A stretch of DNA of 64,000 nt from the NCBI GenBank assembly GCA_965248695.1, contig CBDFKD010000002.1, forward strand, positions 5,161,691-5,225,690, written 5' to 3'. Made by a program: the position numbers and the translations under genes. The notes under the pieces were generated by a model, which saw only the letters and a program-made list of their open reading frames with translations, did no database searches and was not told the DNA's origin. This document shows, piece after piece, positions 27,115-57,119 of this stretch. Every line of letters starts with the position of its first letter. Positions within the stretch are counted from its first letter, which is position 1. Source of the DNA: Acidobacteriota bacterium (GTDB lineage Bacteria > Acidobacteriota > UBA890 > WLXD01).

Positions 27115-27297
27115 CAACTTACAGGCGACCCTCTTGTGGGGCTAATTCTGTTCTTTCCGGTCTATTTCGGGGTGTTTCCCGGGTTTCCTGGTACAAAAGT
27201 GGTATCGGGGTGCCGGCGCTCGCGCAGCACAGGAGGGTAGCGTGCGGGGCGAGGCGATGTGGCGGCTCGAAGAACTGCTGAGGCTCGGGAGAGCGGC

Positions 27298-28302
27298 ATG
27301 AGGCACTTCCGGCTGATCTGTGCCGACGTGCTGGAGGGCCTCGCCCGGTTACCCGACGAATCGGTCCACTGCGTGATAACGAGTCCGCCGTATTGGAGGC
27401 TGCGCGACTACGGTACCGACGGCCAGCTCGGGCTGGAGGCCACGCCCGAAGAGTACGTGGAGACCATGACGGGCGTGTTCCGCGAGGTGCGCCGTGTGCT
27501 GCGCTCTGACGGCACGCTGTGGCTGAACATGGGCGACTGCTACGCGAGCGGCGGGTACGGGGCACGAGATCCCGAGAGGTGGCCGGAGCAGAGCCGAAAC
27601 AACCATATGCGGCACGCCAGGGCACCAAGCGGCGGCCTCAAGCCCAAGGATCTCGTCGGCATACCTTGGCGGGTCGCCTTAGCGCTACAGGCGGATGGCT
27701 GGTGGCTGCGAAGCGACATCATCTGGGCCAAGTCGCCACCGATGCCGGAATCGGTCAAGGACCGCCCCACGAAAGCGCACGAGTACGTCTTCCTGCTGTC
27801 GAAGTCCGCTCGCTACTGCTACGACGCAGATGCGGTTCGAACGCCCTATCGCCCTGCGACGCGGAGCGATTTGGTTGATGGCAGGTGGCGAAAATCCAAC
27901 ATCTCTGGGTGGGCAAATTCGCCGAACTTTCACGGGGCCAATCCGACTAGTAGGCCGCAGCGCCCTTGTCACCGCGGCGGCAAAGTCAAGCAAGGTGCGA
28001 ACCTGCGCTCGGTCTGGACCATCTCGAATAGCGGCAAAGATGCGTTTCCCGAAGCGCACTTCGCAACCTTCCCGACCAAGCTCGTGGAGCCGTGTGTGCT
28101 GGCCGGCTGCCCCGAAGGCGGTGTCGTGCTTGACCCCTTCTGCGGCTCAGGCACCACGGGCGTCGTCGCACTCCGCGCAGACCGGCGCTTCGTGGGTATC
28201 GAGCTCAATGAGCAGTACGTGGAGATGGCGCGCCGCAGGATCGGAGATGACGCGCCGCTGCTGAACCGCGAGGACCCGATGCTCCTGGATCTAGCGGCAT
28301 GA
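27298..28302 (+). CDS. Phage DNA methyltransferase (beta-class amino-MTase, N4-C or N6-A)
   Basis: SPPY motif IV near N-terminus, DPFCGSGTT motif I near C-terminus. Confidence 0.8.
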   Translation: MRHFRLICADVLEGLARLPDESVHCVITSPPYWRLRDYGTDGQLGLEATPEEYVETMTGVFREVRRVLRSDGTLWLNMGDCYASGGYGARDPERWPEQSRNNHMRHARAPSGGLKPKDLVGIPWRVALALQADGWWLRSDIIWAKSPPMPESVKDRPTKAHEYVFLLSKSARYCYDADAVRTPYRPATRSDLVDGRWRKSNISGWANSPNFHGANPTSRPQRPCHRGGKVKQGANLRSVWTISNSGKDAFPEAHFATFPTKLVEPCVLAGCPEGGVVLDPFCGSGTTGVVALRADRRFVGIELNEQYVEMARRRIGDDAPLLNREDPMLLDLAA

Positions 28303-28622
28303 TCAGCTTCGAGTCCCCCGCGATCCCCGACGTTGAAGGCGTGGACATCGCCCCGGAGCGCGCACTTGCCGCTGCGGTGATCCGTCGGGCGATTGTCGAC
28401 CTGGGCATGGTGGCAACGTGGCGTGATCGAACCGAGCGGCCCGCTTGCACGTGCAAGAGGCTACGGGAGATCGGCCCCGAATCAGACCTGGTTGCGTGGT
28501 TGTCGCACCCGGAGGAGTTGCGCCCCTGCTCGCTGGGCTGGTGGTGTCAGTACATCGGTGCTGACCCGGTGGCGCTCACCGAACAACTGCGTCATCGAGG
28601 GCTCTTGGAGGCAGCGGCATGA
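28299..28622 (+). CDS. Hypothetical phage protein
   Basis: ATGA overlap with flanking genes; 107 aa. Confidence 0.4.
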   Translation: MISFESPAIPDVEGVDIAPERALAAAVIRRAIVDLGMVATWRDRTERPACTCKRLREIGPESDLVAWLSHPEELRPCSLGWWCQYIGADPVALTEQLRHRGLLEAAA

Positions 28623-29866
28623 CTCCAACGCCCCGCCGGATCGAGGATCTGCAGCCGGCGCCCTACAACCCGCGCACTATCGATGCCCCCTCGCTGGAGG
28701 CGCTGAAGGCATCGCTGGGTACCTTCGGCGACCTCTCAGGTATCACCTTCAACGAGCGCACCGGGCACCTCGTTACGGGCCACCAGCGCGTGCGTGTGCT
28801 ACGCGAACAGCACGGCGAGTCAGCGCGCATCCGTCACGCCGGCAAGGAAGCGTACCTACACGTGGGCTCCGAGCGGTTCCGGTTGCGCGTCGTGAACTGG
28901 GACGAGGAGACGGAGCGCGCCGCGAACATCGCCGCCAACTCGCCCCTGCTCGCAGGCATCTTCACGGACGATCTACCCGACCTGGTGGCGCTGGCCCAAG
29001 AGGAGTTGCCGGAGCTGACCGATGCGCTCCGATTCGATGATCTGCTGGAAACGCTCGACATGGGACCGGAGCCCATCGAACTGCAAGATGACGAGGTGCC
29101 AGAGCCACCAGCCAACCCGGTGACCAAGCCCGGGGACGTATGGACACTGGGGGATCACCGGCTTATCTGTGGCGACGCGCAGGATCCTGGTGTCGTCGCC
29201 GCGCTGCTCGGCGATCATGTCCCGTTGCTCATGATCACCGATCCGCCCTACGGCGTGGAGTACGAGCCGGAATGGCGCGAACGTGATTTGGGAGAAAAAC
29301 ATGCGGGCCGGCGGTCCGGGATTGTACGCAACGACGATTGCGCCGACTGGCGAGAGGCGTTCACCCACTTTACCGGCGATGTCGCCTACGTATGGCACGC
29401 ATCCTTGTTCGGTGCGGTCGTGCTCGAAGGGTTAGCGGCGGCGCGGTTGGGGCCTCGTGCCCAGATCATATGGGCCAAGCCGCAGGGCGTGATCTCACGT
29501 GGTCACTATCAATGGGCTCATGAGCCGGCCTGGTACGCGGTGCGCCGCGGCCGGAGCGCGCGCTGGAGCGGAGACCGGTGCCAAAGCACGCTCTGGCGCA
29601 TCTCCAACCAGCTACGAGCCTCCGAAGGCAAGACGGACCACTCGACGCAAAAGCCGCTTGAGTGCATGGGCCGTCCGATGCGCAACCACGGCAAGGTCGG
29701 CGATGGGGTCTATGACCCGTTCGTGGGCTCGGGTACCACGCTCATCGCCGCCGAGCAGCTGGAGCGCCGCTGTTTCGCCATCGAGATCGACCCCGGCTAC
29801 TGCGACGTAACCGTCGAGCGCTGGGAAAACCTGACCGGCTCCAAGGCCAACCGGTGCACCCCGTGA
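28619..29866 (+). CDS. ParB-like nuclease domain fused to DNA methyltransferase
   Basis: N-terminal ParB/Srx-like segment (…LVTGHQRVRVL…), C-terminal MTase with DPPYGVEY and DPFVGSGTT. Confidence 0.8.
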   Translation: MTPTPRRIEDLQPAPYNPRTIDAPSLEALKASLGTFGDLSGITFNERTGHLVTGHQRVRVLREQHGESARIRHAGKEAYLHVGSERFRLRVVNWDEETERAANIAANSPLLAGIFTDDLPDLVALAQEELPELTDALRFDDLLETLDMGPEPIELQDDEVPEPPANPVTKPGDVWTLGDHRLICGDAQDPGVVAALLGDHVPLLMITDPPYGVEYEPEWRERDLGEKHAGRRSGIVRNDDCADWREAFTHFTGDVAYVWHASLFGAVVLEGLAAARLGPRAQIIWAKPQGVISRGHYQWAHEPAWYAVRRGRSARWSGDRCQSTLWRISNQLRASEGKTDHSTQKPLECMGRPMRNHGKVGDGVYDPFVGSGTTLIAAEQLERRCFAIEIDPGYCDVTVERWENLTGSKANRCTP

Positions 29867-29885
29867 TCATCCCAGGCACACACCC

Positions 29886-30443
29886 ATGAACAACCGCTGC
29901 ACGGCGATTACCACGAGCACCGGAAAACGCTGCAAACGCAAGGCGTTACCCGGATCGGATCGGTGTGCCATCCCCTCGCATGCCGAAGATGTTGTCCAGG
30001 AATGTCCAGGAGCCAACGTGCGCGCGCGCGCGAGGGATTGGGAATCGGTCTACTTCAAAGCGTTAGAGCGTGGACACACCAAGGAGTCTGCTGCCGGTGT
30101 CGCTGGCGTCAGCGCGGCAACGCCCTACAAGCGCGTGCAGCGGGGAGACACGGCGTTCGCCGAGCAGGAGGACATTCACTACAACCGGGGCTTGGGGATG
30201 CTCATGGAGGTGGCGCGGCGACGCATCCTGGATCCCAAGCGCCCTGGAGATCTCGTGCTCAAGCATCTGCTATCGGTTCGTGGCGTCAGCGAGCGCGTGC
30301 AAGTGACGGGTGCCGACGATGGCCCGGTCATCACCAGGATCGAGCGGGTCATCGTGTATCCCGAGAATCGGAATGACGATGCAGACGCTGACCCTAAGGC
30401 TGATGCAGCCGCCGGCCCCGAGGCTCAGGACGATGCGGCATGA
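29886..30443 (+). CDS. Putative terminase small subunit/DNA-binding protein
   Basis: Position immediately upstream of terminase large subunit; basic N-terminus; overlaps terL start. Confidence 0.4.
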   Translation: MNNRCTAITTSTGKRCKRKALPGSDRCAIPSHAEDVVQECPGANVRARARDWESVYFKALERGHTKESAAGVAGVSAATPYKRVQRGDTAFAEQEDIHYNRGLGMLMEVARRRILDPKRPGDLVLKHLLSVRGVSERVQVTGADDGPVITRIERVIVYPENRNDDADADPKADAAAGPEAQDDAA

Positions 30444-31665
30444 CGGGCAGCATGAAGGCACGCTTCAGATCGACACGCCGCACGGGTTTGAGCCGCTGCT
30501 CAAGGAGCGCGCACGGTACCGGGGTGCGTACGGTGGGCGAGGATCAGGCAAGTCATGGTTTTTCGCCTCGCTGCTGGTGCAACGATGCCTAGAGGATCCC
30601 AACACCCGAGCCCTGTGCGTGCGCGAGGTGCAACGGTCGCTGGATCAGTCCGTGAAGCGGCTGCTAGAGGACACCATCGGAAGGCTCGGGGTGTCAGAGC
30701 ACTTCCGCATCCTCAACACGCATATCGAGACCGGCGCCAACGGCCGGATCATCTTTCACGGGATGCAGAACCATACGGCCGAGTCGATCAAGTCGCTGGA
30801 GGGGTATGGGATCGCGTGGGTGGAGGAGGCGCAGTCGCTATCAGCCAAGTCGCTAGAGCTGTTGCGCCCGACGGTGCGCGCCACCGGCTCGGAGCTGTGG
30901 TTTTCGTGGAACCCCAACAGTCCCACCGACCCGGTGGATGCGCTGCTCCGCGGCACCAATGCACCGCCCGGCGCGGTGGTGGTGGAGGCCAACTACGCGG
31001 ACAACCCCTGGTTCCCAGACGTGTTGGCCCAGGAGATGCAGTGGGACCGGGCGCGCGACCCGGACAAGTACGCCCACGTCTGGCTGGGGGAGTACGTGGG
31101 CCGGTCAGAAGCGCGAGTGTTCGACAACTGGAGCGTCGAGCAGTTCGCCGATCCGCCCGAAGGCACAGCGTTGTACTTCGGAGCCGACTGGGGTTTCTCA
31201 GTCGACCCGACGGTGCTGGTGCGCTGCTGGATCGATGGGCGGAAGTTGTACGTGGATCGGGAGGCGTACCAAGTGGGCTGCGAGATCGACCGCACGGCGG
31301 AGCTATTCGACTCCATCGACAACGGCCAGGCACGCGCCTGGCCGATCATCGCCGATTCCGCTCGTCCGGAGACGATCGCGTATCTGCAGCGACACGGGTA
31401 CCCGCGCATCGCCAAAGCGCGCAAGGGGCCGGGAAGCGTGGAAGAAGGTATCGAGTTTCTGCGCAGCTACGACATCGTCGTGCATCCCCGCTGCCACCAC
31501 ATGATCCAGGAGTTGACGTTGTACAGCTACAAGACGGATCGGCGCACGGGACAAGTGATCCCGGTGCTACAGGACACCCACAACCACGTCATCGACGCGC
31601 TGCGCTACGCGGTGGAGCGGGTGCGGAGAGTCGCGGTGAGGCAGCGACAGGTGGCCTGGGGGTGA
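30433..31665 (+). CDS. Phage terminase large subunit
   Basis: Walker A GGRGSGKS; nuclease-domain Asp residues; about 410 aa; start could also be 30373. Confidence 0.85.
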   Translation: MRHDGQHEGTLQIDTPHGFEPLLKERARYRGAYGGRGSGKSWFFASLLVQRCLEDPNTRALCVREVQRSLDQSVKRLLEDTIGRLGVSEHFRILNTHIETGANGRIIFHGMQNHTAESIKSLEGYGIAWVEEAQSLSAKSLELLRPTVRATGSELWFSWNPNSPTDPVDALLRGTNAPPGAVVVEANYADNPWFPDVLAQEMQWDRARDPDKYAHVWLGEYVGRSEARVFDNWSVEQFADPPEGTALYFGADWGFSVDPTVLVRCWIDGRKLYVDREAYQVGCEIDRTAELFDSIDNGQARAWPIIADSARPETIAYLQRHGYPRIAKARKGPGSVEEGIEFLRSYDIVVHPRCHHMIQELTLYSYKTDRRTGQVIPVLQDTHNHVIDALRYAVERVRRVAVRQRQVAWG

Positions 31666-32071: not shown

Positions 32072-33487
32072 ATGCCAGTAGATACCGCTTCCGATACGTA
32101 TGAGGCGTTCGTCACCAAGTGGCAGCGGGTGCGTCATTGCTACGAAGGCTCTGACGCAGTCAAGGAGCAGGGGGCTGGATACCTGCCCCCGCTAGCGAGC
32201 CACGGACGCGAGCCAGCCAAGTACGAGGCTTACAAGCAACGAGCGCTGTTTTACAACGCCACCGGACGCACGGTGGATGGTTTGGCGGGACTGATCTTTC
32301 AGAAAGAGCCAACGCTTCTGCTGCCCGCAAGCATCCAGGATCACGATAGGGACGTGACGCTAGGGGGCGAGTCGGCCGAGACGTTCGCACTCCAAGCTAC
32401 CCGCGAGGTGCTGCTGACGGGTCGCTACGGAATCCTGGTGGAGATGGGCTCCGAACAGGTAGCGGGTAAGCGACCCTACTGGTGTGGGTATCGGGCCGAG
32501 GACATCGTGTCGTGGCGCACGCAGCGTCTGGGTGGCGATGAGATCACTACACGGGTGGTGCTCAGAGAGGTAGCGCGGGAGCCCGATGAGCGAGACGAGT
32601 TCGTCACGCGGCAAATCGATCAGTACCGGGTGCTGCGGCTACGAGACGGGGCATATACGCAAACGGTGTATCGGAAAGCCTCGAAATCCTCCTCCAAGTA
32701 CGAACCATGGACACCGCCGGGGCAGCAGGAGCCGGAAGTGGTGGCGATACGGCGCGGCGAGGCGCTGCCGTTCATTCCCTTCGTGTTCGTGTCTCCAAAC
32801 TCCACGTCGGCTCGGGTGGACAAGCCCCCCCTGCTGGACCTGGTGGATGTGAACCTGTCGCACTACCGGACGATGGCGGACCTAGAGCACGGGCGACACT
32901 TCACGGCACTGCCTACCCCGTGGGTAGCCGGGATCAAGGACGAGGAGTCAGGGCGGTTGGAGATCGGCTCGGGCACAGCGTGGATGCTGGAGCCCACCGG
33001 TAAGGCGGGGATGCTGGAGTTCACCGGCCAGGGGTTAGGGGCGTTGGACAAGGCATCGGAGGAAAAGCGCCTCATGATGGCGACGCTGGGTGCGCGGTTG
33101 TTGGAAGAGCAGCCGCGAGCGGCGGAGACCGCCACGGCGGTAGGGATGCGTCACGCTGGGGCCCACGCCACGCTGCGAACGGTGGCGCAGGCGATCGAGA
33201 GTGCCCTGGGTCAGGCGTGGCGGTATCACGCCTGGTGGATGGGTACGGAAGCCAAGCCAAGCGACGTGGAGGTTGCCTACGAGCTGAACAAGGACTTCGT
33301 GGCGGTGCCGATGAGGGCCGACATGTTGCGCTCCTTGGTGTTGGCGTTGCAGGCGGACGCGGTGTCGTTTGAGACCTTCTGGGCGGCGATGCAGAAGGGC
33401 GAGCTGGCGCGGCCGGGGGTGAGTGCGGAGGAGGAACAAGCGGAGATCGGGCGTCAGGGACCGGCGCTCGTGGGAGAGGTGGCGTGA
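32072..33487 (+). CDS. Phage portal protein (DUF4055-type)
   Basis: 471 aa immediately after terminase; composition/length typical of portal. Confidence 0.7.
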   Translation: MPVDTASDTYEAFVTKWQRVRHCYEGSDAVKEQGAGYLPPLASHGREPAKYEAYKQRALFYNATGRTVDGLAGLIFQKEPTLLLPASIQDHDRDVTLGGESAETFALQATREVLLTGRYGILVEMGSEQVAGKRPYWCGYRAEDIVSWRTQRLGGDEITTRVVLREVAREPDERDEFVTRQIDQYRVLRLRDGAYTQTVYRKASKSSSKYEPWTPPGQQEPEVVAIRRGEALPFIPFVFVSPNSTSARVDKPPLLDLVDVNLSHYRTMADLEHGRHFTALPTPWVAGIKDEESGRLEIGSGTAWMLEPTGKAGMLEFTGQGLGALDKASEEKRLMMATLGARLLEEQPRAAETATAVGMRHAGAHATLRTVAQAIESALGQAWRYHAWWMGTEAKPSDVEVAYELNKDFVAVPMRADMLRSLVLALQADAVSFETFWAAMQKGELARPGVSAEEEQAEIGRQGPALVGEVA

Positions 33488-33786
33488 GCAGGGTTCTAAG
33501 AGTTGACGGGATATCGGTAGCCGTTGAGGAGGTGCCTCGTATCCATATAACCGAGGAGGCTCACGGCGAGTTTATTAGCCAGCCGACGCCGCACATTCGG
33601 CTAGCAGAGGACTTGCCGGACGGTGAATGGAAGCACTATGTGCTGCTGCATGAGTGGGTGCATGCGGTGTTATTCGTGCGGGGGCTGAGCTCGGTTCTCG
33701 AAGAGCATCAAGAACTCGAAGAGTTGGTATGCAACGCCATTGCATCCGAGATGGTCAAGGGGGGGTTATTTCCCGATGCCACGTAG
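33484..33786 (+). CDS. Small HExxH-motif protein (possible minimal metallopeptidase)
   Basis: LLHEWVHAV motif; 100 aa; overlaps portal stop. Confidence 0.45.
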   Translation: MSRVLRVDGISVAVEEVPRIHITEEAHGEFISQPTPHIRLAEDLPDGEWKHYVLLHEWVHAVLFVRGLSSVLEEHQELEELVCNAIASEMVKGGLFPDAT

Positions 33787-34054
33787 AGAGCCTGCGTATC
33801 GGGAGCTTCATGCGGCCGCCGACAGGATCGAGCCGCGCCTGGAGCGGGCGTTCGTACGGGCCATGGAGCGCTTGCGGGATCAGGTGTCGATCAACGAGCT
33901 AGCGCTAGCGCTGTCGGCCGGCGATGCGAAGGGGGCGCTGCGGCGGGTGCCGGTGGGTGAGGTTCGGGAGGCGTTGGAGGGAGTGGGAGACAGCGTGCAG
34001 GAGGCGTTCATGCGCGGTGGAAGACTCGGGGCGAAGCGAATCAATGAGCTCTAG
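33776..34054 (+). CDS. Hypothetical phage protein
   Basis: Shares 40-bp direct repeat (ERAFVRAMERLR) with next gene. Confidence 0.3.
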   Translation: MPRREPAYRELHAAADRIEPRLERAFVRAMERLRDQVSINELALALSAGDAKGALRRVPVGEVREALEGVGDSVQEAFMRGGRLGAKRINEL

Positions 34055-34055
34055 G

Positions 34056-34370
34056 ATGGAGCGGGCGTTCGTACGGGCCATGGAGCGCTTGCGGGAGGGT
34101 CTGTACGACGAGGCTGGTGCCGAGAGCTTGATGGCGCCTGTTCTGGTGGAGTGGCACGACTCGTACGGCTGTTCTGCCAGTTGGCAGCCATTGGATATGA
34201 TCGAGCCTGCGGCTCTCGTGTACCGGTCTGTAGGGTGGTTGGTACACGAAGACGATCAGTGTCTCGTGGTTGTGCCCCACCTGACGGACCAGACTGAGGG
34301 AGTTGCCCGCCAGGGGTGCGGCGACATGACGATTCCACGCTGCGCGGTGCTACGCGCGTCCAACGCCTAA
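34056..34370 (+). CDS. Hypothetical phage protein
   Basis: Starts MERAFVRAMERLREG; 104 aa. Confidence 0.3.
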   Translation: MERAFVRAMERLREGLYDEAGAESLMAPVLVEWHDSYGCSASWQPLDMIEPAALVYRSVGWLVHEDDQCLVVVPHLTDQTEGVARQGCGDMTIPRCAVLRASNA

Positions 34371-34384: not shown

Positions 34385-34966
34385 ATGGCCACGACCAGCA
34401 CTTCCTTCCGGTTCGACGCCACGCTCCCGGCAGCACAGCGCGCCGCTGCCCGCCATGCGGCACGGCTCGTCAAGGGAGTCTCAGAGGAGACCCGTCGGGG
34501 TATTCGTGCAGCCATCGTGCGCGCCATCCGCGAGGGGCAGCCTCCGTTCGAGGCGGCACGCGCGATCCAACCGATGATCGGACTGAACGCGCAACAGGTC
34601 CAAGCGGCGCTGAATTACCGCGCCGAGCTGATCGACCAGGGGCTGACGCTGCAGTTTGTCGACCGCAAGGTGGACCGCTACGTGCAGAAGAAGCTTCGGG
34701 AGCGAGCCCGAACGATCGCCCGCACCGAGATCATGAACGCGCTCAATGCGGGGCAGGAAGAATCCTGGCGTCAGGCGCAGCGGGCGGGGCTGTTGCCCAA
34801 GGGGCAGAAGAAAGTATGGATCGTCACGCCGGATGATCGGCTCTGCCCGATTTGTGAGCCGATGCGTGACGCCGTGGCGGAGGTTGGTAAGCCGTTTCCG
34901 ATTCCGGGGCCACCGGCGCATCCTCGGTGCCGGTGCGCGGTGGGGATCGCTACAGACGGCCGCTAG
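34385..34966 (+). CDS. Phage head morphogenesis protein (SPP1 gp7 / Mu F-like)
   Basis: C-terminal HPRCRC motif typical of this family. Confidence 0.7.
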   Translation: MATTSTSFRFDATLPAAQRAAARHAARLVKGVSEETRRGIRAAIVRAIREGQPPFEAARAIQPMIGLNAQQVQAALNYRAELIDQGLTLQFVDRKVDRYVQKKLRERARTIARTEIMNALNAGQEESWRQAQRAGLLPKGQKKVWIVTPDDRLCPICEPMRDAVAEVGKPFPIPGPPAHPRCRCAVGIATDGR

Positions 34967-35214: not shown

Positions 35215-35976
35215 ATGCAAGTCGTCGTTGAAGATCTGGGTGCCGTTGCCGAAGCACTTCGCGACGAGTACGTGGAGCGTGACGGTAAGTACGTACTGAA
35301 GCTCGAAGGCGATGTGCCGGGGATGGTGGTGGCCTCGGAGCTGGAGGAGCAGAAGAAGGCCACGGCGCATTTCCGGGATAGCAACGTTGGTCTGAACAGC
35401 AAGATCGGTGATTTGACCACGAGGCTCGATGAGATCTCCGGTCTTGAGGACAAGTACACGAGCGCCGTCACGGAGCTTGAGACGTTGAAGAAGACGGCGC
35501 CCAAGAAGGACGCGGAGATGCAAGCGATCCAGGCGCAGCTAGAGTCATTGGCAAAAAAGCTCGATGAGTCCAATGCGCGCGAGGTGGCGGCACGGCAGCA
35601 AGCGGCACGGAAGGATCTTGAGTCGCAGCTGCGAACCGTGGGATCCAAGCTCGGAGTACGTGACGAGGCGTGGGAAGACTTTTTGTCTCGTGGAACAGCG
35701 GTCTTCCAGCTGACCGAAGAGGACGGCAAGGTCGTTGCCAAGCGTGGCGAGGAGCCGTTGTTTTCCGAAATCAACCCGGCGCTGCCGCTCACGATGCAAG
35801 AGTGGGGCGAGAGGCTACAGCGACAAGCGGCGCATCTGTTCAAGGAATCCACCGGAGGTGGAGCACGCCCGAGCGATACGAGCGGTTCCACAACGGGCAT
35901 GGCACGTATGGTTTCGGAAGATCAGTTCGGGGGGAGCTTGGAGGACATTGCGGCCGGCAAGGCCGTAGTACAGTAG
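35215..35976 (+). CDS. Phage scaffolding protein
   Basis: Coiled-coil-rich 253 aa immediately upstream of coat gene. Confidence 0.6.
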   Translation: MQVVVEDLGAVAEALRDEYVERDGKYVLKLEGDVPGMVVASELEEQKKATAHFRDSNVGLNSKIGDLTTRLDEISGLEDKYTSAVTELETLKKTAPKKDAEMQAIQAQLESLAKKLDESNAREVAARQQAARKDLESQLRTVGSKLGVRDEAWEDFLSRGTAVFQLTEEDGKVVAKRGEEPLFSEINPALPLTMQEWGERLQRQAAHLFKESTGGGARPSDTSGSTTGMARMVSEDQFGGSLEDIAAGKAVVQ

Positions 35977-38220: not shown

Positions 38221-38224
38221 CGAT

Positions 38225-48553: not shown

Positions 48554-49801
48554 ATGGCCTGGACGACTCCCAAGACATTCGTGGCCGGTGCCGTGCTGAC
48601 GGCGGCGGAGCTGAACACGCATATGCGTGACAACCTGAACCATCTGTTCGACAGCATCGACGATGTCGGCACGCTCTTCAACATCGCCTCCAAGACGGCT
48701 GCCTACACCGCCACCACCGCCGACACGGTACTGCTGTGCGATGCCTCCTCGGGTGCCTTCACTCTCACGCTGCCGGCAGCCTCGGGCAACGCTGGGCTGT
48801 ACTACCTGATCAAGAAGATCGACTCCTCCGCCAACGCCATCACCATCGATGCCAACGGCTCAGAGACCATCGATGGGGCCACGACCTACGTGTCGGAGAT
48901 GGAGGATCAAGCGGTACTGATCGTTTGCGATGGCTCCAACTGGGAGACGCTATCGCACACCGCCAACAGTCTGCTGAACGTGGTCTCCAAGACCAGCGCC
49001 TATACGGCCTCGGCCACCGTAGACCAGGTGATCTTGTGCGATGCTTCTTCGGCAGCTTTCACCCTCACGCTGCCAGCCGCTTCGAGCAACGCCGGGGTGT
49101 ACCTGTACATCAAAAAGATCGACTCCTCCGCCAACGCGGTGACGATCGATGGCAATGCCTCAGAGACCATCGATGGGGCCACCACGTTCGTGGTGAACTA
49201 CGAGGATCAGGCCGTTGTCCTCGCGTGCGACGGGACCAACTGGGAGACGCTAGCGCGGACCAGCACGCCGGTCTCCGCAATGGCCTTGATCGCCGCGGCG
49301 ACGCCAGCCAGCGGAACGATCTCGATGAGCTCCCTCACCACCACCGACTACGACGCGCTGTGGCTGGTGGTTACGGGTCTGGAGTCCGATACCGATCAGG
49401 ATGAAGTAGAGATGCAGCTCAATGCCACCACCGCGGGCTACCACTATGCGGACGAGATCGTCAGCGAGACGACCATCGAGCAATCCTTCGGCGCCGGCAA
49501 CGCCGGCTCGATCAAGCTGCTGTCCAATAGCGTCGGGGCCCGGAGGCTGGGCAATGCCGCCGATGAGGGGGCGTTCTTTTCGGTCTGGATCGACAACGAC
49601 CACCACGCCAACGAGTTTCTGGTGTTTTACCAAGGCTCCTATGTGGACGCTGACGGCAGGCTCTGGTCCTCGCTCGGCGGCAGCGGCTGGGTGGATCTGG
49701 GCACCGCCACCTCGATCACGCAGATTGACATCAAGGCCACCACGGGCAACCTGGATGCAGGCACAGCACGTTTGTACGGGCTCCGAAAGGCGGCGGCATG
49801 A
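48554..49801 (+). CDS. Tail fiber/receptor-binding protein with internal about 110-aa tandem repeat
   Basis: Typical N-terminus MAWTTPKTFVAGAVLTAAELNTHMRDNLN; repeated KTxAYTA…LCDASS.AFTLTLPAAS.NAG.Y..IKKIDSSANA.TID.N.SETIDGATT. Confidence 0.65.
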   Translation: MAWTTPKTFVAGAVLTAAELNTHMRDNLNHLFDSIDDVGTLFNIASKTAAYTATTADTVLLCDASSGAFTLTLPAASGNAGLYYLIKKIDSSANAITIDANGSETIDGATTYVSEMEDQAVLIVCDGSNWETLSHTANSLLNVVSKTSAYTASATVDQVILCDASSAAFTLTLPAASSNAGVYLYIKKIDSSANAVTIDGNASETIDGATTFVVNYEDQAVVLACDGTNWETLARTSTPVSAMALIAAATPASGTISMSSLTTTDYDALWLVVTGLESDTDQDEVEMQLNATTAGYHYADEIVSETTIEQSFGAGNAGSIKLLSNSVGARRLGNAADEGAFFSVWIDNDHHANEFLVFYQGSYVDADGRLWSSLGGSGWVDLGTATSITQIDIKATTGNLDAGTARLYGLRKAAA

Positions 49802-50226
49802 ACTACAAGCTCCTGGTGCGGGATGAGGACGGAGAGATCCTGGCCTCAAGGCGCGCACCGAAACAGCCGGATGGCTCCTATGAAGGGCAGCCCCTGGACT
49901 ACGTCGCGCCCAACGATCCGAAGGCCGTGCGCTACGGCATCGACGAGGTTGTGGCCACGGACGTGTGGACGGGCTCCGGCGCCCTGCGCTCCGGCTACTC
50001 GGTGGTTGTGATCGACTCCGCAGTGCACCCGAAGATGACAGCGCACAAGGTGCTGGAGGGGCAGCTGGTGGACAAGAGTGCCTCGGAGCGGGAGGCTTCG
50101 GAGCGGGCCTCCAAGCCGGCCGAGGAGCGCCGGCGCGAGGATGCGCTCGCGTGGCTGGCAGAAAACCCCGATGCGTTGGTGCCCGCCTCACGAGTGTTGC
50201 AGTTGATGGGGCAGGCGGATGCATGA
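49798..50226 (+). CDS. Hypothetical phage protein
   Basis: 142 aa. Confidence 0.4.
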   Translation: MNYKLLVRDEDGEILASRRAPKQPDGSYEGQPLDYVAPNDPKAVRYGIDEVVATDVWTGSGALRSGYSVVVIDSAVHPKMTAHKVLEGQLVDKSASEREASERASKPAEERRREDALAWLAENPDALVPASRVLQLMGQADA

Positions 50227-50440
50227 GGGGGTCGCGCAGCTGGACTACGAGGCTCTGGAGCGGCTGTATTGGCAGCTACCGGAGCCGATGCGGAGCCAGT
50301 TTCAGCAGCAACCGTGCATCCAGAAGGTACGGTGCCCACAGTGCCAGAGTCGACTGCTTGATCTACGAGGTAGCATCGCGCACATTAAGTGCAGGTGCGG
50401 CAAGGTCCACAAGCTGGGCCGGCTGAGCCTGACAATCTAA
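50219..50440 (+). CDS. Small zinc-ribbon protein
   Basis: CPQC…CRC. Confidence 0.35.
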   Translation: MHEGVAQLDYEALERLYWQLPEPMRSQFQQQPCIQKVRCPQCQSRLLDLRGSIAHIKCRCGKVHKLGRLSLTI

Positions 50441-50481
50441 GAGCCCCGAGAGGGCCTAAAACCTAACCGAGACCCGAGAGG

Positions 50482-50509
50482 TCCAGGCGTATTCGCCTGG
50501 GCCTTTTTG
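50482..50509 (+). terminator. Intrinsic terminator (hairpin ccaggcg-tatt-cgcctgg followed by cctttttgt)
   Basis: GC stem + T tract directly read. Confidence 0.7.
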
Positions 50510-50524
50510 TATGCAGAGACTCCG

Positions 50525-51559
50525 ATGACGAGCAACATGAATCGCCGGCAGCTGCTCAAGAGGGGCGGCGCCAGCAGCGCGCTGCTGGGCGTGGGCGACC
50601 TTTCCCCGCTGCTGGCCCCACGCATACTCGTGGGTCCCTTCGTACAGGAACTGCTCACGTACCGGCGCGCCACCCAGCTGCGACTCGTGCGTCAGGCCCA
50701 AGAGCTCGGTCTGGATGCCCTCGGCTTTTGCCTGTGGCCCATCGTGCCGGGGGGCGTGGAGATAATCCGCTACCCGGTGCCGTATGCCGGCTACGACCTG
50801 TCCCGGCCCACGGTGCCGTACCAGCGACGCCTGCACGAGACCGTGAGTGCCTCGGTGGCGGCCGGCATCCGGCCCTACGTCTACGGGCCGATGTTCCCGG
50901 ACCTACGCCGTTACCACCCGATGTTCGAGCGCATGAGGTTCGGTGGCCGCGGCATCCGTGCGGCGGACTGGGCCACTTGGAGCCCGCTGGCGCACGATGC
51001 CTGGAGCCATTTCCTGTTGCGCATCCACGCCGAGTACGGCGACGCGGTGGCCTACGTGGACGGTGTGGAGCCATTCACGCGCTACCTGCCGCCGCCCCCG
51101 AACCACTTCACGGCTCAGATGAGGCAGGCGCTCCCGGGCATCCTGTCGGCGGGCATCCACGAGCGTCACTTTAACCCCGGCGACTCCGACATCCCGCATG
51201 CCCGCGTCGTGGCTTCCGACGGCTGGGGCCGCAGCACGCGGCGCTGGCACTGGGGCCGCCCGACAACAGGGACGGGTCCCGTCCGCCGGCCCTTGGCGGC
51301 GCTGCCCCCGGGTAAGGCATCCGACCAGCGAACCGCTGAGGGCCAGGTGGCCTCCTACTTTCGTGGCGCTGCCGATACGGCCCAGGCGCAGGGCGCCGAG
51401 GCGTTCCTGGTGCTGCACACCCCTGGCTGGGTGGTGTCCTCGGAAAAGGAGGCCAAGGCGCAGGCCAACGACCCGGACCACTACCAGGGTCACCCGGCGG
51501 TGGCGAGTCTGCATGCACCGCCCTTCGGGGCCATCTATCAACAGCTGGCGGCGGCATGA
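50525..51559 (+). CDS. Secreted (Tat-like RR signal) hypothetical protein; candidate moron
   Basis: MNRRQLLKRGGASSALLGV; bracketed by terminator upstream and lysis genes downstream; start could be 50537. Confidence 0.5.
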   Translation: MTSNMNRRQLLKRGGASSALLGVGDLSPLLAPRILVGPFVQELLTYRRATQLRLVRQAQELGLDALGFCLWPIVPGGVEIIRYPVPYAGYDLSRPTVPYQRRLHETVSASVAAGIRPYVYGPMFPDLRRYHPMFERMRFGGRGIRAADWATWSPLAHDAWSHFLLRIHAEYGDAVAYVDGVEPFTRYLPPPPNHFTAQMRQALPGILSAGIHERHFNPGDSDIPHARVVASDGWGRSTRRWHWGRPTTGTGPVRRPLAALPPGKASDQRTAEGQVASYFRGAADTAQAQGAEAFLVLHTPGWVVSSEKEAKAQANDPDHYQGHPAVASLHAPPFGAIYQQLAAA

Positions 51560-51864
51560 GCGAGGAGCGGCTAGCGCGCATCGAGACGGCCGTGGCGCGC
51601 ACGGAAGCCAACGTGGCTGCCCTCAAAGGGGATGTCGAAACGCTCAATGAACGGCTGTGGAGGGGCAACGGCGGCAAGAGCCTCATGGTTCGCATAGAGC
51701 TGCTTGAGCAAACCCAGGTGACCACGGAGCACATCGAGCAGTTAGAAGCAGATCGAGAGAAACGAGAGGCAGCTCGCCGCTGGCACATCCGACACCTATG
51801 GGCCGCCATCGGAGCCGTGGTGGCCACCATCGTAGCCGGCTGGATCTTCGGAGGAGGGAGTTGA
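51556..51864 (+). CDS. Membrane protein (holin-like, C-terminal TM)
   Basis: …HLWAAIGAVVATIVAGWIFGG. Confidence 0.4.
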   Translation: MSEERLARIETAVARTEANVAALKGDVETLNERLWRGNGGKSLMVRIELLEQTQVTTEHIEQLEADREKREAARRWHIRHLWAAIGAVVATIVAGWIFGGGS

Positions 51865-52067
51865 TGAGCAAATTTTCGTTGTCTCAACGTGTAATGAAGC
51901 ATCTGGGCCCGTGGCAGCGCGCGCAGTCGCTCGCAGTGCGGATCGCTAAGGCGGTGGTGCTGGTGTGCCTAGCGTTCGGCGTGGTGTTCGCCGGGTTTTT
52001 CGGCAAGGTGCTGATCGTCGTCGTGCTGCTCGGCTGGGCGGCGCTGGCGGTGCTGGTGGGGCTATGA
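51864..52067 (+). CDS. Small membrane protein (holin candidate)
   Basis: AVVLVCLAFGVVFAGFFGKVLIVVVLLGWAALAVLVGL. Confidence 0.4.
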   Translation: MSKFSLSQRVMKHLGPWQRAQSLAVRIAKAVVLVCLAFGVVFAGFFGKVLIVVVLLGWAALAVLVGL

Positions 52068-52098
52068 GACTCGCCGGCCTGCTCGCCTGGGGGCTGCC

Positions 52099-52455
52099 AT
52101 GAGCGACGACAAGCGCCTGATTGCCGTGTTGGGAGGGCTAACAGGCGTCGGTGTCCTGCTGCTACTGCTGGGGCTGGCCTCCGAGGTCCGCACGGCGACC
52201 GGTGTCTCACCCACGAATCTGGGGCTCGTGCTACAGGCATTCGGCAAACGCCTTCTGGCCGTGACGCTTGGCCTGGGGGTGCACCAGGTGATCGACCGCG
52301 CCTTCCTGCCGTTCCTGCGCATTGAGCAGGCCTTTCGCCGGGAGGGCAAGTTCTCCACCGATGCCATGAGCAATGAGGAGCGCATGGTGTGGGTCGCCGG
52401 TTGGTTCTTGACCTTGGCGGTCATCGTCCTCGCCTTCGCCTCGGCGGCGAGCTAA
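52099..52455 (+). CDS. Membrane protein (holin candidate, 2-3 TM)
   Basis: Two hydrophobic helices; 118 aa. Confidence 0.45.
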   Translation: MSDDKRLIAVLGGLTGVGVLLLLLGLASEVRTATGVSPTNLGLVLQAFGKRLLAVTLGLGVHQVIDRAFLPFLRIEQAFRREGKFSTDAMSNEERMVWVAGWFLTLAVIVLAFASAAS

Positions 52456-52973
52456 TGGCCGGCGCGATCCAGGTCACAGCCGCGCTGTTGGCGGTGTTCT
52501 ATGGCGAGCTCGCCGGCGCGGGGTTGCCACTCGATCCGTTCGAGTCGCGGTTTCGGGCGCAGATCCAAGTGGAGTCGGCTTGGCGGCCCGAGGCGCGCTC
52601 CAAGTACGCCGCCGGACTCGCACAGTTCACCCCTGCCACGTGGAGCGACATCGCGCCGTACACCGAGCCCTCGTGCGCTGGCGCCCCCGAGACTGACCCG
52701 GCCTGCTCGATCCGCTCGCAGATCGTGTACATGCGCCGACTATTGATCCGATACAGCGACTCGGCGACCCCGGAGGACCAGTGGGCGTTTGCCTCGGCTG
52801 CCTACAACGGCGGTCCTGGATGGATCAGCCGCGAGAAGGCGCGGTGTGCGGCGGCTCCAGACTGCGAGCCGCGCCGCTGGTGGGGCCACGTCGAGCTGCA
52901 CTGTTTACGCGCCGCGTGGGCGTGCCGTGAAAACCGCGCCTACCCGCGCAAAATCGTCGCGCGGCTGCCGTAG
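52455..52973 (+). CDS. Lytic transglycosylase-type endolysin (SLT domain)
   Basis: QVESAWRPEARSKYAAGLAQFTPATW. Confidence 0.75.
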   Translation: MAGAIQVTAALLAVFYGELAGAGLPLDPFESRFRAQIQVESAWRPEARSKYAAGLAQFTPATWSDIAPYTEPSCAGAPETDPACSIRSQIVYMRRLLIRYSDSATPEDQWAFASAAYNGGPGWISREKARCAAAPDCEPRRWWGHVELHCLRAAWACRENRAYPRKIVARLP

Positions 52974-52980: not shown

Positions 52981-53670
52981 ATGAGACTCCGCACTGCCAT
53001 TCTCCTCATCGCCCTCGCCACCCTCGTGGGCTTCGGTGCCGGATGGTGGCACTTCGCACCCTCGCTGCTGTCGCCTGAGGGGCTGGTCGGGCTGGCCTCG
53101 GGGCTGCTGGATCAGCAGCGCCGCGAGTCGCTGGCCCAGTACGAGGCGATGCAGGCGACCCACGCGGCCGAGATCGCCGCCTATGAAGCCGACCTCTCCG
53201 CTACAGAACGAGCGCTCGGCCAGCTGGGTCTCCGACTCGCCGAGCGCGATGCAGAGGCGGTCGAGGCGGAGCAGGCCCTTGGCCGCACTCTCCAGCTGGC
53301 GGCACAGCGCGAGGCGCAGCTGCGCGATGAGATCTTGGCGGCCGTCCCCGGGCTCGAGGTGCCCCTGGAGGAGCTACAGGCACAGCACCGCGGCGTGGTG
53401 AAGGGGTTCGAGCTACGGGTCAAGGCGCTGCAGCAGAGCGTCGAGACTCGTGACCAGCTGATCGTGAACCTGCGACAGCAGCTGGGTACCACTCGCCAGC
53501 TATACGAGACAACGCAAGCGCGGCTCGACCTGGCGGAGGCGCGGCGCAAGAGCCTCGAAGGACGGCGCGTGCGGCTAGCTCCAGCGCTGCTGATCGGCGG
53601 GATACGCGACCTGAGCGGCACAGACGGCTGGAGGGCTGGCGTCGCCGTCGGGATTGCGATCACCTGGTAG
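52981..53670 (+). CDS. Spanin-like protein (N-terminal TM + coiled coil)
   Basis: Start ATG 52981; MRLRTAILLIALATLVGFGAGWW then coiled coil. Confidence 0.5.
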   Translation: MRLRTAILLIALATLVGFGAGWWHFAPSLLSPEGLVGLASGLLDQQRRESLAQYEAMQATHAAEIAAYEADLSATERALGQLGLRLAERDAEAVEAEQALGRTLQLAAQREAQLRDEILAAVPGLEVPLEELQAQHRGVVKGFELRVKALQQSVETRDQLIVNLRQQLGTTRQLYETTQARLDLAEARRKSLEGRRVRLAPALLIGGIRDLSGTDGWRAGVAVGIAITW

Positions 53671-53722: not shown

Positions 53723-54421
53723 CTAGCTGGAGTTGAACCGAACCTCTAGCTCCTTGACAACATCCAGCAGGGTTGCTGTCGACGCCGGTAACAATACGTA
53801 GTACAGCGGCTCTCCGTCTCCAGCACCGGCCCGCGGTTCGATAACAAAAACCTTTTCGGCGAGAGTTGCCGCAAATGACGTGACGCTGTCTTTGGCCTCG
53901 TAGGTCACGCGGTACCCGATGCGCAACGGGAGCAAATGGTGTTCGTCAGCGTAGGGGCTCACGGTTGCCGGTTCGAGGGTCTGCTCGACGAACTCCTGGA
54001 ACGCAGAGGAGAACATCCGTCGAAAGTCGATGTCGAGGGTGCAGATGCAGAAACTGTCCTGTGTCTCTGCGATGGGGACCATCGCGTCAACGTCGCACAG
54101 GCCGGACTCGACGAAACACTGCATGAGCTGGGCGTGGAACTCGTCCGCGTTTTCCGATGTGCCGAGCACCGTCGAGGAGATCCGCCGGGGCTCTACCCGC
54201 GTATGCATGATCGGCACCGCCGTGTCTTCGTCCAGCTGGTACGCGCCCCTCTCGAATACCACGGTATCTAGCCCGGCTTCGCCCAGGTTCGGGTTTACGT
54301 TGTTGAAACCGAACTCGGTGATGAGCTTGTTGCCAAGGCCTGCTGACAACACGGCCCCCGCAGGAAGCACGTCCGATCTAAAGATGCGCGTCTGGCTGAC
54401 GCTCAGTCGTCGAACCTTCAC
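53723..54421 (-). CDS. Hypothetical protein (232 aa), third gene of a toxin/HTH operon
   Basis: Translationally coupled to upstream HTH gene (4-nt overlap); no recognisable motif. Confidence 0.5.
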   Translation of the reverse strand: MKVRRLSVSQTRIFRSDVLPAGAVLSAGLGNKLITEFGFNNVNPNLGEAGLDTVVFERGAYQLDEDTAVPIMHTRVEPRRISSTVLGTSENADEFHAQLMQCFVESGLCDVDAMVPIAETQDSFCICTLDIDFRRMFSSAFQEFVEQTLEPATVSPYADEHHLLPLRIGYRVTYEAKDSVTSFAATLAEKVFVIEPRAGAGDGEPLYYVLLPASTATLLDVVKELEVRFNSS

Positions 54422-55092
54422 GCGACTATCCCCTGCTCAGCTCCGCTGGAGATTCCGGACGCCGGGCGCGCCTGAACCGAGGGGGCAATCGAGTCGTCCA
54501 TTGTGCTGGCGTAGTGGGAGATGTCGTCCTGCGGGATGAGACTACTGGCCCCTTGGGATTCCAGCCCGCTCTGGGGCACGCAGCTTGGTGCCAGATGCTG
54601 TTGGGTTGGTGCTCCTGGGGCGGGGTACCACCACATTGCCTTGCTGCCGATCGACGAGCCGGCAGAATGCCATATGCGAAGAAGGTCCGCGATCGTGATG
54701 GCAGTAGACGTATCCTCCTCTACTGCTCGGCCGTGGAACTCTGGATCCTCGTCAAACGAGGCCTGCCACAGGGTGGCAGGGCTGCGATCCTCGATCTCAA
54801 ACAGCATCTCACCAAAGCTCTCGAACCGCACCGACAATCCGATGTCGAAGATCTCGGCCAGCCGCTTAAGCGTCCCGATCCGCCCCGCCGGTTCGTTCGG
54901 ATCCTCTAGGCGGGAAATAGCTGACTGGCCGGTTCCGAGGAGTTCGGCAAGTTGCTCCTGAGATAGGCCCCGGTGCTTCCGGAGGATCCGAATCTGTGAC
55001 GCTACGACAGAATCGACGAACGAGTCGATGTAGGCATGCCGGTACTCTGGGTCACGAAACTCCTCGCGTAAGTGGTCTATGTCACGGGTCAA
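54418..55092 (-). CDS. XRE-family HTH regulator (HigA-like antitoxin with disordered C-terminal tail)
   Basis: LRKHRGLSQEQLAELLGTGQSAISRLE. Confidence 0.7.
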   Translation of the reverse strand: MTRDIDHLREEFRDPEYRHAYIDSFVDSVVASQIRILRKHRGLSQEQLAELLGTGQSAISRLEDPNEPAGRIGTLKRLAEIFDIGLSVRFESFGEMLFEIEDRSPATLWQASFDEDPEFHGRAVEEDTSTAITIADLLRIWHSAGSSIGSKAMWWYPAPGAPTQQHLAPSCVPQSGLESQGASSLIPQDDISHYASTMDDSIAPSVQARPASGISSGAEQGIVA

Positions 55093-55666
55093 AACGCTGC
55101 CTCCAATCCGCGTCGTCGATGATCGCTACTCGTCGCTTATTGGCTTTCGCACAACTGTTCCGGGGGTTCCACTTGCCGCCCACCTCGAACGCGCCCATCA
55201 GGAACGTGAACTCCGTGGTCTTGTCGATCGGCCCCTTGCACAATATGGGTCGTAGCTGCACTCCTCCGACTTGGATGCGGAGCTTGTAGAGATGCCGGTA
55301 CTTCCGTGTCGCGTCTTTGATTGGACCGGCAAGGAGCTCTGTCGAAACCGTCGGACCCTCTTCCCTGAGCAGTTTCGCCTTGTCGTTGAATCTGGCCTGC
55401 GCCCGACGCTGAAGACCATCGCGCCAGGAGGTAATCGTCCCCTGGCCTCTACCATCTACGTACTCATGCAAGGAGAAGATGGGCGTTGACGGTACCTTAT
55501 CACGATACTGTGATGCTGCGAGTTGACGGCGCTTTCGGCGACTCACCTGGCGGGCAGCGATTATCACGGGCCATCCGGCGGGTATCGGGCGCACCCCCCA
55601 GTTCCTCCCCCACCGTAGAAAACACCGTGCGGCCCTTCGAAAAGGCCGCCCGGCGCTTGCGGGCAC
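55082..55666 (-). CDS. Putative RelE/HigB-like toxin (phage gp49/DUF891-like); true start probably internal
   Basis: …RHLYKLRIQVGGVQLRPILCKG…FTFLMGAFE… resembles gp49-family; overlaps downstream HTH by 11 nt (toxin-upstream HigBA order). Confidence 0.4.
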   Translation of the reverse strand: MPASAGRPFRRAARCFLRWGRNWGVRPIPAGWPVIIAARQVSRRKRRQLAASQYRDKVPSTPIFSLHEYVDGRGQGTITSWRDGLQRRAQARFNDKAKLLREEGPTVSTELLAGPIKDATRKYRHLYKLRIQVGGVQLRPILCKGPIDKTTEFTFLMGAFEVGGKWNPRNSCAKANKRRVAIIDDADWRQRFDP

Positions 55667-55904
55667 GTCGAAGCCCCTCAGCTTCGCGCGGCGGGAAAGA
55701 TAGCACGCGAGAAGATCGCCGGCACTTCAGCTGCCTGCCAGCAGATGCGGCGCCAGGCATGGCACAGGTGCTCGCGGCCAAAAAGCGGTCTTGATGAGCA
55801 ACCAAAAGAGCGGCCGGAGGAGGTATCGTAGCGAACGTACCGTTCCGACCGCTCTTTCGTTCTTCGTGTACCGGGTGGTGGTGGGCTGGTGCCGGCTCCG
55901 GGCT

Positions 55905-55946
55905 TCCTATCTACGGGTCACGGGTTCGATCCCCGCCACCTCCACA
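55905..55946 (+). other. tRNA 3'-end-like fragment (T-arm GGGTTCGATCCCC + acceptor-like CACCTCCA); candidate att-site remnant
   Basis: T-loop consensus and acceptor 3' strand present but no foldable 5' half upstream. Confidence 0.35.
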
Positions 55947-56407: not shown

Positions 56408-56561
56408 GGGCTTGGATCTGGTCGCATCAAGAGCCTCAGCGGCCGGCGGATCAGGTTCGGGCGGCCCGCCGTGCTCATCGGTGCCGTGCGGAGCCCTGGG
56501 CGTGGATGGGAGCCGGGTGTCGCCGTCGGGATCGCGGTTACCTGGTAGGGAGGCGTGTGAT

Positions 56562-56774
56562 TTACCCCAACACCACTAGAGTATCGATCGTTGTCCCTAG
56601 CGCTCTAGCAATGCGGGACAGCGCGGCTGTAGAGCCGGGCTTGAGCCCACGTTCGATCTCAGACAGATATCCTGTAGCGATGCCCGTCTTGGCGGTGAGG
56701 TCGCGCACTGTGATGCCGTAGTGGGCGCGGAATGCAACGATTGGGCGTTCACCCTCCATAATGGCAAGTGCCAC
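56562..56774 (-). CDS. Short XRE-family HTH protein (Cro/CI-like)
   Basis: ITVRDLTAKTGIATGYLSEIERG. Confidence 0.7.
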   Translation of the reverse strand: MALAIMEGERPIVAFRAHYGITVRDLTAKTGIATGYLSEIERGLKPGSTAALSRIARALGTTIDTLVVLG

Positions 56775-56859
56775 CTCGTGCGGGATACGGCTCCCATCAT
56801 CTGCCTCGAGTGCGGCTAACCGATCCTCAAGTTCTTCCTTGCTGGCAACAAGGGCATCG

Positions 56860-56877
56860 TGAATTTATTGCAATTCA
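56860..56877. promoter_or_regulatory. Operator-like palindrome TGAATTtattgcAATTCA in AT-rich region upstream of HTH gene
   Basis: Directly read; AT-rich 56840-56890. Confidence 0.4.
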
Positions 56878-57032
56878 TAATTTCTGGATAATTTGCAGTT
56901 GCTTCTGCAGTTCACCTGTACTGAACGAAGACGAAGTGATCGACCAGTACGGCATCGCGCCCGAGCGGGAACACCAGAAAGGCCGCCTGCGGCTGATCAG
57001 CTTACGAGAGGCGTCTGCCTGAGAAGAAAGGT

Positions 57033-57119
57033 GCCATCGTGGCGAAATCGGCAAACGCACCCGGTTTGCGACCGGGCGGCTGTCTAGGCCTTGTGGGTTC
57101 GAGTCCCACCGATGGCACC
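57033..57119 (+). tRNA. Class-II (long variable arm) tRNA-like gene, Leu-type scaffold, non-canonical anticodon loop UUUGCGA
   Basis: Acceptor GCCATCG/CGATGGC, UG at 8-9, 3-bp D stem GCG/CGC with AAATCGGCAAA loop, anticodon stem CCCGG/CCGGG, 16-nt variable arm, T arm GTGGG-TTCGAGT-CCCAC, discriminator A. Confidence 0.65.

Follow-up and report, generated by a model that had tools for sequence, protein, structure and literature searches.

A phage late-gene block without integrase or replication genes in an Acidobacteriota chromosome, probably a truncated siphovirus prophage

We analysed a 64,000-nucleotide stretch of an Acidobacteriota genome (assembly GCA_965248695.1, contig CBDFKD010000002.1, positions 5,161,691 to 5,225,690; hereafter the window), which carries a phage element of ~28.6 kb between 27.1 and ~55.7 kb. 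About 35 genes on the same strand, from DNA methylases through a lysis cassette, make up its late-gene run (27.26–53.67 kb), and a minus-strand cargo operon (53723–55666) completes it. The element is probably a defective, truncated siphovirus prophage of which only the late half is left. The original prediction, made from the sequence, had offered a choice between a defective or cryptic prophage and a domesticated cluster resembling a gene transfer agent (GTA). The former is favoured by the gene content, by a length that is short for the head type and by several family copies or remnants elsewhere in the lineage, some of them cut by insertion sequences (ISs); the latter lost ground, as the copies proved to be scattered, mosaic and partly broken and no hallmark GTA gene was found.

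Families were assigned by profile searches with Pfam, PHROGs and NCBIfam. These bore out the predicted full head, tail and lysis set, every named gene being present and intact (Table 1), and both of the methyltransferases said to precede terS and TerL matched PF01555, with terS placed by position only. The same searches found no integrase, resolvase, DDE transposase, excisionase or replication domain within 27.1–55.7 kb. No recombinase or replication gene was found in the rest of the 64-kb window either, where the only transposases are of the IS256 and IS1/IS1595 types, and the far side of the class II tRNA described below (57.1–64 kb) gave only Xre regulators, IS pieces and genes of unknown function, with no recombination or replication gene. 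Upstream of the methylases we found no regulator. The predicted lack of a CI/Cro pair inside the element also stood, divergent Xre pairs occurring only at 61.7–64 kb; yet one Xre-type helix-turn-helix (HTH) gene is present in the cargo operon, its product having a low-complexity C-terminus in translation, and by its sequence this resembles an antitoxin more than a CI repressor. Left to itself, the element can neither excise nor replicate nor govern its expression.

A length of 28.6 kb is too short for a whole phage of this kind, because the relatives that share its head genes sit on contigs or genomes of 36–79 kb. Metagenomic relatives with the same portal–MuF–scaffold–coat–connector module, which is common up to the tail chaperones, were on contigs of 36–63 kb, and the nearest cultured phages by coat (52% amino acid (aa) identity) and portal (32–36% aa identity) have genomes of 55–79 kb, the coat match being to the major capsid protein of ~76 kb Vibrio siphoviruses. 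It is thus unlikely that 28.6 kb with a headful-type terminase represents the whole genome of such a phage. A megablast search with 25 kb of the element against GenBank phages gave no match, neither the portal nor the 350-aa tail protein, each used singly, found anything among viral contigs, and viral loci found through TerL shared TerL only.

Further copies of the family lie at different loci beside different host genes, several per genome, some of them cut by ISs. Locus L081, which adjoins a MatE gene where a 4.36 Mb contig ends, holds a small open reading frame (ORF), three methylases, terS, TerL (93% nucleotide (nt) identity) and a portal gene split by an IS, the 3' part of which is 99.6% nt identical to the window portal. 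On the same contig, 3.8 Mb away, L165 carries the tape measure (96% nt identity), tail and lysis genes, these last two intact, and degraded scraps of the cargo operon; after these come an insert that resembles a transposon, the class II tRNA cut down to its first 63 nt, some unrelated genes, a methylase block in inverted orientation, an IS and tRNA-Thr. In L249, host genes and tRNA-fMet are followed after ~300 bp by one methylase, terS and TerL and then only by ISs. L164 and L166 are lysis-cassette remnants beside ISs, and in the more distant L168 the lysis genes are followed by Gp49 and HicAB toxin–antitoxin pairs and then by host outer-membrane genes. More truncated portal and endolysin variants occur in both the 4.36 Mb contig and the 5.76 Mb source contig, the latter with an extra endolysin gene (P0221).

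The sister copies are mosaic, at 69–100% aa identity, with ratios of nonsynonymous to synonymous substitution (dN/dS) of 0–0.36. To judge from the sequences, low dN/dS and mosaicism would fit divergence within working phages and do not discriminate decay from domestication; purifying selection among the copies would fit phage lineages that are independent of one another, not copies made from a single dead element. That the pieces are scattered, IS-broken and at different loci points to repeated infection followed by decay, and not to one conserved domesticated locus.

The left border of the element is sharp, the first phage gene following the stop codon of a host ATP-binding cassette (ABC) permease at 27114 after 145 bp. 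No IS or repeat breakpoint signature and no tRNA or transfer-messenger RNA (tmRNA) gene was found at this border. Comparison of the junction (27050–27270) with 50–64 kb revealed no repeat in common, the 10-mer matches being chance-like, and no direct attachment-site (att) repeats were found at the two ends of the element. The left junctions of the family copies had no common end sequence that beat shuffled controls; one candidate, a CAAC..TTACAG motif in the window and L081, was rejected when local alignment against shuffles gave z ≤ 2.7, and then only near the ribosome-binding site.

The right border is untidy. The cargo operon runs into a patchwork at 55.75–57.0 kb in which a tRNA-like piece, a 91-aa ORF, the 3' end of a second spanin gene and an Xre gene succeed one another; next comes a class II tRNA. 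The remainder, up to the end of the window, holds IS fragments, an exact 162-bp repeat, another odd tRNA, a transposase of the IS1/IS1595 type and two divergent Xre pairs. We place the end of the element itself near 55.7–55.9 kb, and the right end earlier set at 57119 was moved inwards accordingly, the second spanin 3' end lying within that patchwork. G+C content is ~64% over the window and 58–60% from ~55 kb rightward; that of the element equals that of the host. The search for att repeats with the tRNA-like fragment, which had been proposed as a check, found one copy in the window and, as said, no repeat shared between left junction and right side. Because the fragment is unique and no left–right repeat exists, neither tRNA feature is demonstrable as an att site.

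On the truncated-prophage reading, the ancestor would have been a temperate phage with all its modules and a genome of some 40 kb or more, inserted so that its methylase end adjoined host DNA, and the other end, with the lysogeny switch, replication genes and recombinase, would later have been deleted, overwritten or moved. IS activity, in a genome lineage that is rich in ISs, and recombination among several related prophages in the chromosome would be the likely agents, and the right edge would now lie within the resulting debris (the second spanin 3' end, an IS1595-type fragment and the exact 162-bp repeat). Since the late genes are still intact, the loss would be recent or the decay only now beginning. 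Complete structural genes without an integrase are common and not in themselves evidence of domestication; 40% of 889 predicted alphaproteobacterial prophage regions had no integrase (PMC5721377). If the truncated-prophage reading is true, the element is one more integrase-less prophage remnant and of little significance as such; it also documents an uncharacterised siphovirus family that has repeatedly colonised an uncultured, IS-rich lineage.

Several points weigh against a truncation. The ~35 late genes of the window copy have no frameshift, premature stop or IS, and an undamaged dead element implies either young age or selection. Four copies (the window, L081, L249 and the inverted L165 block) start with methylases beside non-phage DNA, which looks less like a chance deletion point than like a regular end of the prophage; with a regular methylase end, the missing module belongs on the right, possibly beyond 64 kb. 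We infer the ancestral layout, a complete relative with an integrase not being among the loci found, and the Pfam-annotated contexts of the relatives show no integrase or replication gene.

Taken further, the methylase end could be a true attL and the prophage complete, with its lysogeny, early and integrase modules to the right and mostly beyond position 64000. Some phages have attP adjoining packaging genes, the four methylase-led copies directly adjoin non-phage DNA, and in two of them a tRNA gene lies upstream (tRNA-fMet in L249, tRNA-Thr at the inverted L165 block); a 28.6 kb late region plus 12–20 kb of early genes would match the sizes of the relatives. We consider such a layout unlikely all the same: the lower G+C (58–60%) of 57–64 kb and its two divergent Xre pairs of the CI/Cro kind would suit it, but the stretch from the cargo genes to 64 kb holds a spanin remnant, IS pieces and odd tRNAs and no replication or recombination gene, and from 57.1–64 kb only IS-like sequence and a 25%-identical 288-aa protein recur beside L165. 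In L165 itself, host-type genes (tRNA-Thr and a TonB receptor) are reached ~9 kb past the spanin with no early region between, and L168 passes from lysis genes through toxin–antitoxin pairs to host outer-membrane genes. It is quite unlikely that the prophage was instead split by inversion or translocation through related prophage or IS copies, its early half now lying elsewhere in the 5.76 Mb chromosome, where the integrase would adjoin a missing tRNA or tmRNA ending in GGTTCGATCCCCGCCACCTCCA. The left junction has no IS or repeat breakpoint signature to go with such a split, which would otherwise account for the orphan tRNA-like 3' fragment at the right edge without a left partner, for the inversion of 55754–55861 relative to L165 with a direct join to the tRNA at 57016, and for the presence of several related copies per genome in both orientations (the inverted methylase block of L165; the extra endolysin P0221).

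A domesticated GTA-like or PBSX-like particle producer, which would package and release DNA or kill competitors, its methylases protecting packaged or host DNA, is in our view very unlikely. The late genes are all intact while mobility and control genes are missing, dN/dS against the sister copies is 0–0.36, G+C is that of the host, and L165 keeps its tail and lysis genes intact though its cargo is degraded; low dN/dS is, however, just as much to be expected where genes diverge in active phages, the cluster has no linked regulator of host type, and the copies occupy different loci with different host neighbours, several per genome, one with an IS-split portal (L081) and another stopping right after TerL (L249). 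The head type is moreover kin to that of 55–79 kb phages rather than a reduced capsid, and neither the RcGTA hallmark (an HK97 capsid with protease) nor a PBSX tail sheath was found. The GTA-like reading rests solely on what is missing, with no positive support. Least likely of all, the lineage would harbour a family of ~29 kb late-gene-only cassettes that always start with methylases and are complete as such, not broken prophages; they would make particles (a GTA or killer particle of siphovirus type, in an uncultured bacterium) or be mobilised by a helper phage. Should the late cassette prove to be kept and expressed, domestication of a phage into a particle producer would have arisen here anew and independently, outside the known groups. 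A transposable phage of the Mu kind was also considered and rejected, there being no transposase and no common end sequence and the portal being of the DUF4055 rather than the DUF935 type; a MuF domain is not specific.

Table 1. Features of the window, with coordinates counted from its first nucleotide.
Feature	Position	Strand	Evidence or remark
IS256-type (Transposase_mut) gene	1853–3202	+	87% nt identical to copies adjoining phage remnants in sister contigs
Sugar ABC transporter, binding protein	23570–24565		Pfam
Sugar ABC transporter, ATPase	24605–26146		Pfam
Sugar ABC transporter, permease	26056–27114		Pfam
Left junction	27115–27258		Between host permease stop codon and first phage gene
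DNA methylase 1 (N6_N4_Mtase)	27259–28302	+	Pfam PF01555, E = 2e-55
107-aa protein	28299–28622	+	No family match; homologues in L081 and L165 at 67–78% aa identity
DNA methylase 2 (415 aa)	28619–29866	+	Pfam PF01555, E = 1e-18; motifs in C-terminal third
Candidate small terminase	29886–30443	+	By position only, directly upstream of TerL; no family match
TerL, PBSX/Terminase_3 type (headful family)	30310–31665	+	Pfam Terminase_3, E = 3e-30, and Terminase_3C
Portal, DUF4055 type, intact	32072–33487	+	Pfam DUF4055, E = 4e-39
Small head-region ORFs, including conserved g104 (33740–34054) and tandem paralogue	33484–34370	+	
MuF-like minor head protein	34385–34966	+	Pfam Phage_Mu_F, E = 6e-14; size and position as in L162
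Scaffolding protein	35215–35976	+	phrog_206, E = 3e-19
Major capsid protein, P22-coat-like	36265–37425	+	Pfam P22_CoatProtein, E = 1e-18
Head–tail adaptor Ad1, two connectors, tail-completion protein (Neck1)	37681–39341	+	phrog_477, phrog_3881, phrog_5, phrog_2595
Major tail protein and two tail-assembly chaperone candidates	39797–41436	+	phrog_9522, E = 2e-20
Tape measure (1618 aa)	41755–46611	+	phrog_1533, E = 4e-53
Distal tail, tip and fibre proteins (515, 131, 415, 142, 73, 350 aa)	46611–51559	+	Weak baseplate match, phrog_20556
Three small membrane proteins (XhlA-like, holin-like)	51556–52455	+	Transmembrane (TM) segments; weak phrog_937 match
SLT-domain endolysin	52389–52973	+	Pfam SLT, E = 5e-11; phrog_669, E = 6e-26
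Spanin-like protein	52981–53670	+	N-terminal TM segment, coiled coil, hydrophobic C-terminus
Cargo operon (194-aa, Xre-HTH 224-aa and 232-aa proteins)	53723–55666	-	
Xre-type HTH gene of cargo operon	54418–55092	-	HTH_3, E = 2e-9; best curated NCBIfam matches are antitoxins, below cut-off
Degenerate tRNA-like fragment	55874–55946	+	Good T-arm and acceptor 3' strand; poor 5' half
Second spanin gene 3' end (~40 codons, no gene body)	56411–56549	+	Repeat family D5
Class II tRNA, anticodon UGC	57033–57119	+	Rfam tRNA, 58 bits; neighbour of element

The packaging genes have close kin in the same lineage. Methylase 1 probably starts at the ATG at 27299, the context of which is conserved with the methylase start of L249, and methylase 2 had a weak CcrM-like NCBIfam match below cut-off, with a 44% full-length homologue adjoining TerL in L005. 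The candidate small terminase is likewise directly upstream of TerL in L162 and L249. TerL is 92–95% aa identical to P0226 and P0227, and the portal, which aligns end to end with its relatives, is 100% identical to P0218 of the 5.76 Mb contig. Homologues of g104 were found in 31 of 87 loci (L162–L248). An exact 40-bp repeat (33840–33879 and 34057–34096) lies in this small-gene region and brackets 177 bp that L081 (13075–13208) lacks (217 bp from the start of one copy to the start of the other), and the window has two overlapping tandem paralogues where L081 has one hybrid gene. Frameshift decay between the portal and MuF was considered for this region and rejected, since relatives likewise have these small genes in series and a short MuF. 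The gap that separates scaffold and coat (35988–36279) is filled by three direct repeats of ~95–107 bp, 72–95% alike and each ending GGGCCGCGCCCCGGTGGGGACGAATC; a regulatory RNA or a small repeat element are possibilities.

In the tail region, the positions of the chaperone candidate ORFs are conserved among relatives, the tape measure is 96% nt identical to that of L165 over 43505–45963, and the distal-tail genes are collinear with those of L165 at 69–94% aa identity, with the exception of g415 at 27%. The endolysin has 97 homologues, mostly from the same kind of assemblies, and spanin homologues lie 3' of the endolysin in L164, L165 and L166; in L168 the Gp49 pair intervenes. The similarity of the 194-aa cargo protein to Gp49/RelE toxins is weak (E = 0.07). 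Fragments of the same cargo operon lie 3' of the lysis genes in L165, at 96–99% nt identity.

The label of a tRNA 3'-end-like fragment, given earlier to the piece beyond the cargo operon, was a fair one. ARAGORN called a whole tRNA-Arg(CCT) of 72 nt at 55874–55945; Rfam gave no tRNA match there, only a tmRNA-like one of 18 bits against a gathering score of 47 bits, and the fold was no better than those of shuffled sequences (z = -0.96). The window has a single copy of the fragment, and none of the 249 loci compared contains it. Its 5' half is 63% identical over 46 nt to the spanin 3' end and might be a third such end, which would make the piece a chimeric pseudo-tRNA, although the similarity in translation is weak. 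The class II tRNA-like gene predicted to its right was recovered by Rfam (Table 1) and differs from the fragment at its 3' end. Its first 63 nt, with 17 nt upstream, recur beside L165 (15184–15247), where the gene is cut at the T-arm. The D-arm (GUGGCGAAAUCGGCAAACGC) and A73 of this tRNA resemble those of bacterial tRNA-Leu and there is no G3:U70 pair; the anticodon loop UUUGCGA reads UGC (alanine), and the same loop is found in the sister genome. The tRNA has either decayed or would have GCA codons read as leucine.

The second spanin 3' end (ending in GWEPGVAVGIAVTW before the stop codon) lies past the cargo operon and short of the class II tRNA. Its translation, ending in GRPAVLIGAVRSPGRGWEPGVAVGIAVTW and a stop, matches spanin C-termini; by this match it is a predicted leftover from a further, related prophage, separate from the main element. 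Nearby, 108 bp (55754–55861) are inverted in L165 (15068–15172) and joined there at a shared GCCTG to sequence from window position 57016, which would point to local inversion or recombination beside the class II tRNA. A second odd tRNA (58753–58828, plus strand; Rfam 50 bits) has the anticodon GGA (serine), lacks the long variable arm typical of serine tRNAs, has discriminator U, and lies between a 200-aa gene of unknown function and the IS1/IS1595-type transposase. The exact 162-bp repeat (57726–57887 and 62546–62707) corresponds to the 3' end of a 288-aa gene (62566–63432, minus strand), and one copy adjoins the IS1595-type transposase fragment (57616–57807); at 11.5–13.8 kb of L165, a 25%-identical 288-aa gene lies in an insert of ~2 kb flanked by inverted repeats of ~200 bp. 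The divergent Xre pairs of the CI/Cro kind (61715–62119, minus, with 62182–62415, plus; 63390–63650, minus, with 63732–63941, plus) flank the 288-aa gene of the window and may be part of a different mobile element or of a defence locus.

To the left of the element, up to 27114, the window holds ordinary host functions by Pfam and one IS256-type transposase gene, which is the sole exception among the metabolic genes of 1–19.5 kb. Besides the sugar ABC transporter, these include Rieske oxygenases, a pyrroloquinoline quinone (PQQ) dehydrogenase, oxidoreductases, an OpuAC-type transporter and a PGA_cap protein. With proteins in species-representative genomes the permease reaches no more than 63% identity, its best matches being in Bacteroidota and PVC-group metagenome-assembled genomes; sulfatase and PSCyt1 genes are present on related contigs (those of L164 and L166). 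Taken by themselves, these matches would hint, weakly, at a PVC-group host.

Particles of RcGTA-type agents carry random host DNA, of less than the length of the cluster. Like the RcGTA of Alphaproteobacteria, the element has head, tail and packaging genes without integrase or replication genes; unlike RcGTA, whose clusters are ~15 kb and which lacks a scaffold but has a prohead protease along with an HK97 capsid, a portal of the Phage_portal type and GTA-specific tail genes, it has a P22-like coat, a separate scaffold, no protease and a DUF4055 portal. RcGTA clusters are single-copy and vertically inherited (PMC5721377), whereas the copies here are dispersed (next to MatE, tRNA-fMet and other genes), mosaic and in part broken.

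With PBSX, the defective, particle-producing element of Bacillus subtilis, the element has in common a late block and lysis cassette without replication or integration functions, and a TerL of the family called 'PBSX family terminase' by NCBI. The tail of PBSX is contractile, and its late operon is under the control of an Xre repressor encoded next to it; the element is of siphovirus type (major tail protein, chaperones and tape measure), without a sheath, and no controlling repressor was identified. The families and order of its head genes are those of the Vibrio phage MAR10/KF4 group, Dinoroseobacter phage R5C and Xanthomonas phage Xp15, which differ from it in having genomes of 55–79 kb with full early regions, the element measuring 28.6 kb and having no early region. 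Cryptic or defective prophages of sequenced bacteria, such as the E. coli K-12 remnants, are reportedly the subject of a 2014 study by Bobay, Touchon and Rocha. Like these, the element has lost some modules while others are intact, lies among ISs and other prophage remnants, and has no integrase; it differs from the usual cryptic prophage in that its late set, at ~28.6 kb, is unusually clean and complete and without visible damage.

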